A stretch of 64,000 nucleotides of DNA from a virus (IMGVR_UViG_3300025765_000001), one strand, 5' to 3'; numbered from the stretch's first letter, positions 7,470 to 23,254 are shown. The notes: a model not told the origin generated them from the sequence alone. Numbers and translations are program-made.

Positions 7470-7506
7470 AAAAACAAAACGCCGGGCCTTTTCAGGCCCG
7501 GCGTTT
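7470..7506 (-). terminator. intrinsic terminator after the RNase P RNA
   Basis: AAACGCCGGGCC-TGAAAA-GGCCCGGCGTTT hairpin followed by a T-rich run on the minus strand. Confidence 0.8.
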
Positions 7507-7771
7507 GGTTCGAGTAAGCGGGATTCTGGTTTATGCCTACATTTATCTCACAGGCACTTGTCACCTGTGGGCAGTCTATTACGACACGCCTGCACCTACC
7601 AGACCTTCACAGCCCTGCTCACCGGCTCCAGTCTATTTGGCTTGCATCCTCCGTGGTGCAGACGACCCTCGCTGGCGTACCAGCTACTCGGTCTCCCACG
7701 TTAAGCAGTGATGTCCCGACTTTCCTCTACCACGGTTGGCGATCCCGCAGCAGCGTAGGCTCCGAACCAAA
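7504..7771 (-). ncRNA. rnpB: RNase P RNA (type A-like catalytic domain, reduced S-domain)
   Basis: Minus strand has GAGGAAAGTCGGGA ... CAGAATCCCGCTTA (P4 with bulged U), P1 TTTGGTTCGGAG/CTCGAACCAAA, P2 GCCTAC/GTAGGC, GCAAGCCAAATAG, L15 GGTA and AGATAAATG; own promoter and terminator. Confidence 0.9.
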
Positions 7772-19592: not shown

Positions 19593-19813
19593 TGAGTAAT
19601 GCCAGGGACGTAGCACTTGATATAGCCAAATATCTACAAGGCACCTTCAAGCGAACCACTAGGAACGCCCGCAAGGTCGCATGGCGTACTCTGTCCAGCG
19701 GCAAAGGAAAAGAAGAGATTGACAGGCTCTTAGACAACCCTGATCGGAGCCTCAACACTATAGCCAACCTTAGTTTCAAGGAGTGGCTATCTCGTTCGGA
19801 AACAAATCCTTAA
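19592..19813 (+). CDS. small protein with C-terminal FKEWL motif
   Basis: TGATG coupling; ends NLSFKEWLSRSETNP. Confidence 0.6.
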   Translation: MSNARDVALDIAKYLQGTFKRTTRNARKVAWRTLSSGKGKEEIDRLLDNPDRSLNTIANLSFKEWLSRSETNP

Positions 19814-20477
19814 ACACAGACTCTACCTCGTTCGAGGACTGTTCTCTGTACACATTCAGGTCCATAGAGAAATCTTCTATCTTTAACACGTCTCTCAGGA
19901 AGGGAGACAGCACTAGATAGTATGGACTCACCTTTCCCAAAGTCGTCCAGCCGATTAGCGTGCGATCTTGAAGCAGGATGATGATATCTTGCTTGTTGTA
20001 ATTCTCGCCGAGTTTGGACACGAGAAATTTTCTAGTGTCTTGCAAGTCGAACTTCACCAAGATAACATTGGCCTTATTCGCACCTTTCTCTTCGGAGGTA
20101 GCTGGCCTCTCCATAGCTCGGTCATATTGCTTCTTCCAAAGACGCCATCGCTTCCAAGCTTTCTCGCCGTGTAGAATGCCTGGGTCGATCATAGCGTGAA
20201 TTGTCCCATCTGTGATATGCTTCATGATCTGAAGCTGAGCCGTGATGTAAAGTTGGTAGTCTGAGTCCTCGATCAGGCCTAGTGTCTCACGAGCCAGCTT
20301 GTAGCAATGCTTGAACAGAAGTGACTTCCGTGGATCGCCCGTCTTGCGTAATTTGGCGTGCTGATAGTTGGGGAACAGTTTTCTTGACAAATCTATCCAC
20401 ATGAGCGAAATCTTGTAAGCCTTGGCTTCAAGATCGTTCATTTTGTATTGCAGTACGACTTCGAGGGGGTCTACCAC
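19776..20477 (-). CDS. hypothetical protein
   Basis: 233-aa ORF with GGAG RBS; GDPRKSLLFK motif. Confidence 0.75.
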   Translation of the reverse strand: MVDPLEVVLQYKMNDLEAKAYKISLMWIDLSRKLFPNYQHAKLRKTGDPRKSLLFKHCYKLARETLGLIEDSDYQLYITAQLQIMKHITDGTIHAMIDPGILHGEKAWKRWRLWKKQYDRAMERPATSEEKGANKANVILVKFDLQDTRKFLVSKLGENYNKQDIIILLQDRTLIGWTTLGKVSPYYLVLSPFLRDVLKIEDFSMDLNVYREQSSNEVESVFKDLFPNEIATP

Positions 20478-21252: not shown

Positions 21253-21282
21253 GTTGCGTCGTTCACTAGACGAGAAATGATC

Positions 21283-21310
21283 TTGACTTCCTGTACCACT
21301 TTGCTATGAT
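21283..21310 (+). promoter_or_regulatory. sigma70-type promoter
   Basis: TTGACT-16 nt-TATGAT with extended -10 TG. Confidence 0.65.
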
Positions 21311-21316
21311 AAGGGG

Positions 21317-21683
21317 TGTAGATAACTGGGGCCAATAGCGGTGATAGCCGACTAGGGTGGTGATTCTACGACTCCACAAGAGCTTGAACTGTCCAAGTGA
21401 ATGTTGAGTTAAAAACCTGCAAGGCGGTGCCAGAGACCCTGGCGAGTAACGGCCTGCAAATAACTCGTGTAATCTGACGAGTCGATGATCGCATAGTTCC
21501 AAGGTAAGCCTACTAACGTCAAGGCCGTGCGGTGTGCTTCGGCACCCAAACAAGGTCGGTAGGTTAGGCGGAACTCCCGCAAGCGGGACTTAGCTTGCAC
21601 TGACAGAACTAACTCCGATGCCAAGTCGGTTCTTTGATGGCATAACGGAGAAGGTGTACTTGTGTCAATGATTTTGACACCCC
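21317..21683 (+). ncRNA. large structured ncRNA, unassigned
   Basis: Many nested stems (GCCAG/CTGGC, GTGC-TTCG-GCAC, TCCCG/CGGGA, GAGTTA/TAACTC, CTGTC/GACAG, GTTCC..GCCTA/TAGGC.GGAAC, CTCCG.ATGCCA/TGGCAT.CGGAG); promoter upstream; no credible ORF. Confidence 0.65.
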
Positions 21684-21802
21684 ATATATCTTCTCTTAAA
21701 TGCAACACAACACTAAGAACCGCTTTAGGCCCAGATTATGTACTCATTTCTGCTTTTCACTTCAGACTAGATTCATCTCGTTGGTTTTGGTATACTTCCG
21801 CC

Positions 21803-21976
21803 ATGACAACTTTGAGACATTTGAAGGTTGGAGACCGAGGCCAGTTCAAGACAAGTTGTGGCACCGAAATTACCGGCGTGGTTGTCGAAGCACGTCCAGA
21901 TGGCTACACTGTTCGTAGCGACTCAATCCAGAGCAATCGACATGAGAACGGATATTTCAGATTCACACTTTCCTGA
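21803..21976 (+). CDS. small SH3-like hypothetical protein
   Basis: MTTLRHLKVGDRG..G.VVE; TATACT 6 nt upstream. Confidence 0.5.
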   Translation: MTTLRHLKVGDRGQFKTSCGTEITGVVVEARPDGYTVRSDSIQSNRHENGYFRFTLS

Positions 21977-22012
21977 CTGGTTGATGGCTCGGTCTGATCG
22001 AGGAGAGTGGAG

Positions 22013-22316
22013 ATGTGGACACAACTATTCACCGGGAAGATTAGCCCGGCTCTGTTGCATAAGTGTAAGGACCACGCCTGGAAGGTTTATCTGGCGAGGG
22101 CAGATCAAGACAAGGCTAATGATGATGAAGGCGAACACAGGTACATGCGAAAGCTGATCGGGAAGATAGGCGAGGTTGGAGCAGGGGAAGCCGGGTACGA
22201 AGGCGAGATTGATTGGAAGATATGGGAACGTCCAGCTTCGCTTCCTGACTTGGGCGACAACATTTGAGTCAAGACTTGTTCCGCATTTGAGATGCGGAGT
22301 TTTGGGTTGTCTTGGC
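22013..22316 (+). pseudogene. PD-(D/E)xK-like gene remnant truncated by the TnpB element
   Basis: GKIGE...PDLGDNI*VKTC...FGLSW, then joins TnpB sequence. Confidence 0.5.
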
Positions 22317-23175
22317 ACATGGCTCTCGGCACGGTTTAGGAAGGTTGCTGCCAGAGAAGCCATAGACATGATTCTGAGCGTGAAGAACAAGGAGAACGAG
22401 AAGGCATGCCAGTTCAAACCACGTCACTATGGACGCTCCATGAGTGTGTCCAGTACGATTGCGAGCCTCTAGACCACCAAGAACGCTAGTGAATACGACT
22501 GCTGGTTGCATATCGCCAGCGTTGGTGACGGCATCATCTTGGATTTGCCGGTGAAGTTGCACAAGCATTTCCACTGGCTCAAAGGGCGTGGTAAGGGGCT
22601 AGAGTCATACATCATCAAGAAGGACTGCGTTCAATTCTCGTTTGAGATAGAGACAGGTGCGAAGAAGGACGATGGCGTGGTGATCGGCGTGGTGATCGAC
22701 GTGGATACCGGCATCAACGCACTGGCGTCTCTGGACGATGGGCGTCAGTATGGCCGGGACGTGAAGGGACTGATTGAGAAGATCAAGAGGAAGCAGCACG
22801 GCAGTAAGAGGCAGCAACGAGTACGCCGTGCTTTGAGACAGCGAGTAGATGAAGTCGTCAAAGAGGTAGTCGGCGGTGACGTGAAACTGGTCGTGGTGGA
22901 AGATTTGAAGAAAATGAACCACCGGACCAAACTCAAACGACGCTTGAGTAAAAATATGTGTCGTTCTCTCGGTGCGTGGATATATCGTTACTGGTTGAAC
23001 CGGCTGAACTAGACCTGCGAAGACAACCGTGTTGCCTATCGTCGAGAATGCCGATGTAGTCGGCGGCAAGAACATCAAGTTCTGGTTTCTCTGCGGACCT
23101 TACGGTGCTGCATACAAACTAAGAAACATGGATTTTTTGTCTAAGGTAAGATTTTCCAAGTTTTGAGGAACGGTA
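22317..23175 (+). mobile_element. tnpB: degenerate IS200/IS605-family TnpB (RuvC) element
   Basis: TWLSAR.RKVAAREA, RuvC-I IDVDTGINAL, RuvC-II VVVEDL, RuvC-III NADVVGGKNI; TAG stops at 22470 and 23010; 5' end and Zn finger missing. Confidence 0.8.
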
Positions 23176-23254
23176 TCAAAGACTTGGTACAGTCGTGCCC
23201 CATTTACGCCAAGCGTATCTAGAAAATCTGCCCGCAATGTGATATGGTGAGGAG

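Follow-up and report, generated by a model that had tools for sequence, protein, structure and literature searches.

Comparative analysis indicates that a 64,000-nt segment of a phage genome contains, at positions 21318-21697 of its plus strand, a structured RNA of ~380 nt that is genuine and new and matches no known family. The segment (hereafter the window, from whose first nucleotide positions are counted unless they are given as genome positions) corresponds to positions 22608-86607 of the 435,946-bp IMG/VR virus record IMGVR_UViG_3300025765_000001, which is about 85% complete. A sequence-only reading had marked the interval 21283-21683 as a large, highly structured RNA behind a strong promoter, possibly the first of a new class of large phage non-coding RNA (ncRNA). 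The element is real and extends some 15-20 nt beyond the 3' end of that interval.

The evidence for this RNA comes mainly from a related phage. Scanning metagenomes with the 233-aa protein encoded upstream of the element (19776-20477, minus strand) led to the contig L136 (81% protein identity), on which a single-sequence covariance model (CM) of the element scored 210.9 bits (E ~1e-64). An identical copy of this second RNA sequence is carried by L141, an 11-kb ENA contig, and the neighbouring genes on both contigs are ~80% identical to those of the window. All comparative results thus rest on two distinct sequences, the window element and the L136/L141 copy. Elsewhere, blastn of the element against 50,697 phage records found no homolog; motif scans of IMG/VR gave only chance matches for one 14-mer and none for two structured patterns; and a scan of GTDB genomes produced a single match, inside a coding sequence and without a CM match. 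A search with the protein product of the nearby polA gene returned, beyond itself, one 80%-identical fragment on a 960-bp contig followed by matches of at most 47% identity, and a scan of IMG/VR for relatives of this family-A polymerase gave four loci at ~38%. Because everything searchable yielded only two distinct sequences, the "class" currently amounts to one narrow phage lineage: of the proposal of a new class, the conservation, the structure and the lack of a known family have held, while its membership stands at two sequences.

Folded alone, the interval 21283-21683 has a minimum free energy (MFE) of -135.8 kcal/mol (z = -1.95, with 2 of 100 shuffled sequences as good), and its minus strand does worse than its plus strand (z = -1.14). 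The refined structure, made of 13 nested helix groups and a pseudoknot, holds 100 pairs, and 99% of the cells in the two phages are paired, only two being unpaired. It accounts for 15 double compensatory changes, where shuffles had a mean of 7.5 and none of 500 reached that figure, in an alignment that was fitted to the structure and favours pairing; most of these changes are also present in a plain MAFFT alignment. All six slid controls were free of double changes. In addition, the conserved G-U pairs fit the plus strand only, which indicates that the RNA is read from that strand. It is chiefly on these comparative results that we base our high confidence in a selected, plus-strand structured RNA element.

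On neither strand does the element qualify as a protein-coding gene. Its plus strand has no open reading frame (ORF) of 30 aa or more (scan of 21253-21661). On the opposite strand, a search of 5.8 billion proteins gave no homolog of the window's 99-aa ORF, and there is no alignment between its antisense ORFs and those of the related phage. Moreover, the two copies of the element differ by indels of 1 and 2 nt, which rule out a conserved reading frame. The sequence-only reading was therefore right to describe the stretch as non-coding, and what its homolog keeps is the pairing rather than an ORF. A non-functional stretch, such as a chance-foldable spacer, a decayed gene or an element acting at the DNA level, would be compatible with the weak z-score of the whole interval and with the fact that two related sequences can inflate covariation statistics. 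However, it is very improbable in view of the balance of double changes to unpaired cells and the empty slid controls, the short indels, the unconserved antisense ORFs and the strand specificity of the G-U pairs. The element is also 77% identical between the two phages, like the flanking coding genes (76%), compared with 52% upstream of the promoter.

The same homolog indicates that the single-sequence MFE fold is wrong in at least four helices. In the relative, its outer stem GGGGU/ACUCC is deleted, its pairing of 21403-09 with 21588-94 has three mismatches, and its helix CCCG/CGGG is broken. The replacement pairings fare better: H6 changes from GACUC/GAGUU to GGCCU/GGGCU, with two double changes, and a hairpin at 21579-84/21593-98 shows a C-G to U-A change. 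Two long-range closures had been proposed from the sequence. The first, CUGUC/GACAG, covaries and constitutes the pseudoknot (CUAUC/GAUAG in the homolog, that is, G-C to A-U), whereas the second, GAGUUA/UAACUC, is a possible pairing that competes with two better-supported helices, H6 and H10.

The RNA is predicted to comprise about eight hairpin domains, a pseudoknot between a loop and the 3' part, and a long irregular terminal stem (Table 1). The partner of the Domain 2 loop in the pseudoknot lies ~210 nt downstream, and this pairing would close Domains 3-6 into a compact body. The most conserved part is formed by the junction and Domain 5 (21483-21575), with identical runs of 23, 18, 12 and 10 nt; the pairs of Domain 5 are invariant save for two G-C to G-U changes. 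Its UUCG loop, a cUUCGg tetraloop already picked out from the sequence, is closed by C-G and is identical in the homolog.

Table 1. Features of the RNA and its surroundings (window coordinates; helix numbers H1-H15 follow the refined structure).
Feature	Position	Strand	Description
Sigma-70-type promoter	21283-21310	+	TTGACT (21283-88), 16-nt spacer, TG-extended TATGAT (21305-10)
Domain 1, H1-H5	21318-21369	+	Long irregular hairpin with GAUA loop; four double changes, one mismatch in relative
Domain 2, H6/H7 and apical H8	21370-21410	+	Loop 21389-93 is the 5' strand of the pseudoknot
Domain 3, H9	21418-21458	+	Hairpin with conserved asymmetric internal loop; five double changes
Domain 4, H10	21463-21482	+	6-bp hairpin with variable 8-nt loop; one double and one single compensatory change
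Conserved junction	21483-21494	+	Between Domains 4 and 5
Domain 5, H11	21495-21575	+	81-nt hairpin with internal loops; UUCG cap at 21538-41
Domain 6, H12	21579-21598	+	6-bp hairpin; one double change
Pseudoknot, 3' strand	21602-21606	+	Pairs with 21389-93; crosses H6/H7
Domain 7, H13	21613-21650	+	Hairpin kept in homolog; one double change (structure-fitted alignment)
Long 3' stem	21640-21703	+	H15 21662-68/21674-80; H14 21651-58/21685-92; extendable by 21640-43/21700-03
Conserved spacer, RNA to ORF	21698-21802	+	72% identical, compared with 52-53% upstream of the promoter
57-aa ORF, first gene after the RNA	21803-21976	+	Homologs 50% and 62% identical
Decayed TnpB-family element	22007-23190	+	Cas12f1-like TNB; RuvC-like motifs in three frames; 0.6 kb past the RNA

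At the 3' end, the last 106 nt are far more stable than shuffled sequences in both phages (z = -4.5 in the window and -4.6 in the relative). About 20 base pairs or more, interrupted by internal loops, make up the 3' stem, and in the MAFFT alignment double changes are found in H15 and in the outermost helix (GCAU/AUGC in the window, GCAA/UUGC in the homolog). Two mutually exclusive forms of this region are conserved: the homolog has as its MFE structure the form with H13, the window the form with an extended 3' stem (GCAU/AUGC plus GGAGAAG/CUUCUCU). Each carries a double change, that of H13 in the structure-fitted alignment and that of GCAU/AUGC in the MAFFT alignment. The stem is possibly a processing site or a platform for a switch. 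No U-tract terminator separates the RNA from the next ORF, the 3' stem being followed by UUAAAU, and the only terminator-like site on the plus strand (21615-29) sits within H13. Thus, the element is not a terminator-bounded small-RNA gene: it has a promoter but lacks a terminator of its own. With no U-tract, and with conservation that reaches up to the next ORF, the RNA may be either a free ncRNA or the structured 5' leader of the replication operon. Just beyond the RNA, a terminator-like hairpin (21717-21732) pairs well on the minus strand only, owing to its G-U pairs, and precedes a U-rich run there. The related phage has this hairpin too. No minus-strand gene lies to the right of it, and it may be the end of an antisense transcript.

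The known RNA families were searched by cmscan with all 4227 models of Rfam 15, at gathering scores on the whole window and at E<=10 with permissive filters on the 401-nt stretch. At gathering scores, the window gave nothing except one tRNA; at E<=10, the sole match of the element was a chance hit of 13.7 bits on the opposite strand. The curated families of the signal recognition particle (SRP), 6S, group I and II introns, GOLLD, ROOL, HEARO, OLE, raiA, riboswitches and self-cleaving ribozymes were without a match in this search, in agreement with the earlier failure to recognise tmRNA, RNase P, SRP or group I/II introns by inspection. We also found no description of this element in the literature, and a catalogue of 10,006 viral candidate RNAs contains motifs of 30-151 nt only (PMC10690425).

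The genome has its own copies of the two RNAs that would be the most obvious identities. ARAGORN finds 64 genes in the whole genome, among them a tmRNA at genome positions 100789-101150, and the phage has 62 tRNAs. Two of the tRNAs are of the suppressor type, with anticodons UCA and CUA (genome 191389-191459 and 219242-219319, outside the window). The minus strand of the window encodes, at 7501-7770, a miniature RNase P RNA with its P4 regions present and its specificity domain mostly absent. It matches RF00010 with 51 bits (E = 6e-15), below the Rfam gathering score of 100, and goes unreported at the default threshold. Since both RNAs are encoded elsewhere, the element cannot be the tmRNA or the RNase P RNA of this genome.

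The element also lacks their signatures. The hallmarks of tmRNA are a tRNA-Ala-like domain (acceptor with G3-U70, T-arm and 3' CCA) and a tag reading frame, and those of bacterial RNase P RNA a P4 helix formed from CR-I (GAGGAAAGUCC-type) and CR-V (ACAGAA..GGCUUA-type); the element contains no CR-I/P4 motif, no T-arm and no CCA end. Neither ARAGORN nor Rfam detects a tmRNA in it. A 5' three-way junction loosely resembling an Ala acceptor stem had been described, but its outer stem is the one that the homolog has lost, and neither the G3-U wobble nor the ACAA tail is kept there. Furthermore, the probable 5' end of the RNA lies downstream of most of the G residues of this acceptor-like end, which is probably outside the transcript. 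A tmRNA identity was rejected on these grounds. An RNase P identity was rejected as well, the real copy being at 7501-7770 and the families RF00010 and RF00011 giving no match with the element at E<=10.

It is still conceivable that the element is a highly diverged member of a known family (tmRNA, RNase P, SRP, group I/II intron, GOLLD/ROOL or HEARO-type), given that the score of the phage's true RNase P RNA demonstrates how diverged phage RNAs can escape default thresholds. By eye, an ACAGAAC after the long-range helix and an AAGGUA internal loop recall what we take to be features of Escherichia coli RNase P RNA. However, this explanation deserves very little weight: the diverged RNase P RNA was readily detected in the same kind of search that, even with permissive filters, found no family for the element, and both a tmRNA and an RNase P RNA are present elsewhere in the genome.

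The strong, host-type promoter is the other well-supported part of the element. TTGACT-N16-TATGAT matches 10 of the 12 consensus positions in the promoter scan, is TG-extended, and occurs exactly only once in the 436-kb genome, here. The element begins 7 nt beyond its -10 box. The related phage has retained both hexamers with their 16-nt spacing, the TG, and a distance of 7 nt from there to a conserved GUAGAUAAC, although identity falls to 53% in the surrounding 60 nt and to 52% in the 100 nt upstream of these. Such conservation amid diverged flanks argues for selection on the promoter, and the constant distance to the -10 box makes ~21317/21318 the probable 5' end of the RNA. The 10-mer TGTAGATAAC found at this end (21317-21326) has four copies on the plus strand of the genome, the others being at genome positions 35361, 191274 and 384542, a total above our chance expectation. 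The 9-mer TGTAGATAA, which is also present ~20 nt before polA in a distant relative (L134), is identical at 8 of 9 positions to the reverse complement of what we take to be the DnaA box consensus.

The promoter and the RNA occupy a divergent intergenic region at the head of a long rightward gene block. This block opens with the gene of a small beta-barrel protein, which is followed by that of a 171-aa protein, truncated in the window, and by those of a family-A DNA polymerase and a DnaB-type helicase. In the relative, the order is 233-aa gene (minus strand), promoter, RNA, 54-aa ORF, 171-aa ORF and polA, so that both phages share the order RNA, small ORF, 171-aa gene, polA, as well as the orientation of the RNA. 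More distant kin, whose polA or 233-aa proteins are at most 51% identical, have a non-coding gap of 350-660 nt between the 233-aa gene (or its neighbours) and polA; in these gaps, no copy of the RNA was found with the CMs R1 or R2 (filters on or off), nor any shared k-mers. In one such gap (L128), a sigma-70-like promoter was read by eye, no scan having been run there. Four IMG/VR phages among the distant kin (L003:5545-5700, L004, L005 and L006) have in common a conserved non-coding block of their own, ~110 nt long, in the gap upstream of polA, with nested inverted repeats and a T-run. Its sequence is unrelated to the RNA of the window, and it may be a different small RNA at an equivalent position.

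The mechanism that we prefer, tentatively and at less than an even chance, is that the RNA acts in cis, as a leader with a bistable 3' platform for the early replication operon. Host sigma-70 RNA polymerase would transcribe the plus strand from the conserved extended -10 promoter. The 5' 300 nt of the RNA would then bind some ligand, a protein or an RNA being likelier than a metabolite, and binding would choose between H13 and the extended 3' stem. This choice of fold would in turn set the read-through, the processing or the stability of the downstream message. The reading as a leader draws on the lack of a terminator, on the conserved spacer and the common gene order of the two phages, on the two conserved and competing 3' folds, and on the gaps found at the same position in distant kin. 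The element resembles riboswitches and protein-binding leaders with alternative 3' platforms, such as T-box or ribosomal-protein leaders, in being promoter-proximal and oriented with the downstream operon, in lacking a terminator before the first ORF and in having two conserved 3' folds that exclude each other. It differs from them in that it has no aptamer match, no U-tract terminator and no clear sequestration of a start site, and is far larger and more branched than leaders of the usual kind.

Several points weigh against a leader. Transcription from the promoter, like the ends of the RNA, its action in cis and the switch, is inferred from sequence, and this leader would have no known ligand. 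With two sequences only, several helices, those inside Domain 5 among them, are placed tentatively, and the "switch" may be a coincidental alternative pairing. Eight domains and a pseudoknot exceed what is seen in most cis leaders and are more typical of trans-acting RNAs and ribozymes. In addition, a TATACT box that lies 6 nt before the ATG of the small ORF, and is kept in the relative, could uncouple this ORF from the RNA if it served as a separate promoter. Finally, the small ORF is found elsewhere without the RNA: a third homolog (L139:6001-6168 and L140:1240-1407) stands beside a methionine-aminopeptidase-like gene, with no such RNA upstream. The 57-aa ORF of the window is nonetheless a real, conserved gene. 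Its product is predicted to be a small SH3/Tudor-like beta-barrel (AlphaFold pLDDT 77), and its fold matches in the PDB are generic small barrels with E >= 0.19. A fold this generic neither supports nor excludes RNA binding.

Much of this would suit a free-standing, trans-acting stable RNA, such as a ribonucleoprotein (RNP) scaffold, a decoy or a new ribozyme, made early and abundantly by the host polymerase. It would be released from the operon transcript by cleavage in the long 3' stem, much as RNase III cuts at hairpins of T7 early mRNA, and would act on factors of the host or the phage instead of on its own operon. We consider this quite possible, if short of probable. The architecture of about eight domains and a pseudoknot, with a nearly invariant 85-nt Domain 5 that resembles a binding surface, is what such an RNA might be expected to have; the long 3' stem, with its low z-scores, is kept through compensatory changes; the small ORF possibly has a promoter of its own; and the genome is rich in unusual stable RNAs (the tmRNA, the miniature RNase P RNA and 62 tRNAs). 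Conversely, the RNA shows neither a terminator nor a sign of processing, and in both phages it immediately precedes the same operon, with the same orientation. It also has no identified partner protein, the neighbouring beta-barrel protein occurring without the RNA too.

Two known systems resemble such an RNA in part. GOLLD and ROOL (RF01998 and RF03087) are likewise large, multi-domain, pseudoknotted and phage-borne, and were recognised by the conservation of their structure rather than their sequence; they, too, have no assigned biochemical function. They are ~580-800 nt long and lie beside tRNA genes, whereas the element, which does not match them, measures ~380 nt, stands at the head of a replication operon and is known from two phages only. 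With the RNase III-processed early transcripts of phage T7 (sites R0.3-R1.3), the RNA would share early synthesis by the host polymerase from a strong sigma-70 promoter, and a long irregular stem with internal loops. However, the T7 sites part mRNAs and do not release a folded RNA of 380 nt, and cleavage in the present case is purely inferred.

The position of the RNA beside polA raises another possibility, that of an origin primer or R-loop RNA, which would serve the family-A polymerase encoded just downstream as a primer for leading-strand synthesis. Over the whole record, the cumulative GC skew is flat up to ~43.5 kb (~20.9 kb in the window) and then rises for ~250 kb, and this turning point coincides with the divergent region that holds the promoter of the RNA. 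The region adjoins polA and the helicase gene and, in kin, genes for RNase H, gp32 and RecA-like proteins, and a long non-coding gap recurs at this place in kin. The turn in skew is also the point where gene orientation switches, so that a bias due to transcription might suffice to account for it. We saw no iterons, no AT-rich unwinding element and no antisense regulator, and the gaps of kin share no sequence with the RNA. The element compares with origin transcripts such as ColE1 RNA II and those of T4 in that it would be a structured, promoter-driven RNA, next to a gene for a Pol I-type polymerase and at a GC-skew turn; here, no G/C tracts for an R-loop, no equivalent of the antisense RNA I and no unwinding element were identified, and there is no sequence similarity to them. 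On balance, we regard an origin RNA as improbable.

A last hypothesis concerns the decayed TnpB-family element that follows the small ORF. IscB-type nucleases have large structured RNAs upstream, and a TnpB-family remnant 0.6 kb downstream on the same strand could suggest that the RNA serves the TnpB-like nuclease gene (~22265-23190) as its guide (omega-type) RNA. Like the omega RNAs of TnpB/IscB (HEARO, RF02033), the element is structured, a few hundred nt long and on the same strand as a nearby TnpB-family gene. The two elements are nevertheless dissociated in both directions. The TnpB relatives on L135 and L125 have neither such an RNA nor a gap upstream, and the contigs with the homologous RNA, L136/L141, have no TnpB and an intact 171-aa gene. 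As the RNA and TnpB occur independently of each other, the RNA is not the guide of TnpB; this candidate was refuted by two independent dissociations, has no HEARO match and retains only a negligible probability. Besides, the TnpB copy of the window is itself decayed, with in-frame TAG codons at 22470 and 23010 and changes of frame, and it has lost its zinc-finger region to a deletion of ~100 nt. Full-length relatives have 360-385 aa and a Cas12f1-like TNB domain, among them an intact 360-aa protein (L135:2490-3572) with 73% identity over a 168-aa piece. The insertion appears to have truncated the 171-aa gene, judging by eye from translations of the intact gene (L141:6206-6721). A Logan contig of the same phage breaks off at window position 23137. 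On the JGI contig L125 (2217-5452), a TnpB relative and an IS1595-type DDE transposase lie between the two halves of a nicotinate phosphoribosyltransferase gene, which suggests that the element was inserted into that gene.

To our knowledge, folded RNAs of more than 300 nt are rare in bacteria and phages, and most of those known have proved to be ribozymes or RNP cores, so that any further example may hold new biochemistry. The present case also carries a caution of method, as a convincing single-sequence MFE fold was overturned in several of its helices by one homolog. The most far-reaching outcome, which we think rather unlikely, is that the RNA is the founding member of a class of trans-acting, pseudoknotted phage RNAs (a ribozyme or an RNP core), or else an origin RNA through which early transcription is linked to the onset of DNA replication in giant phages. 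If the trans-acting or the origin reading were true, the unrelated 350-660-nt gaps of distant kin would be its fast-evolving functional counterparts. The RNA would be the first thing that the host polymerase transcribes at the head of the replication module of a ~0.5-Mb phage. Should it act in trans, it would be a further case of a phage RNA that manipulates the host, of which a growing number are known; should it regulate or prime replication, it would help to reveal how the replication programme of giant phages is set going.
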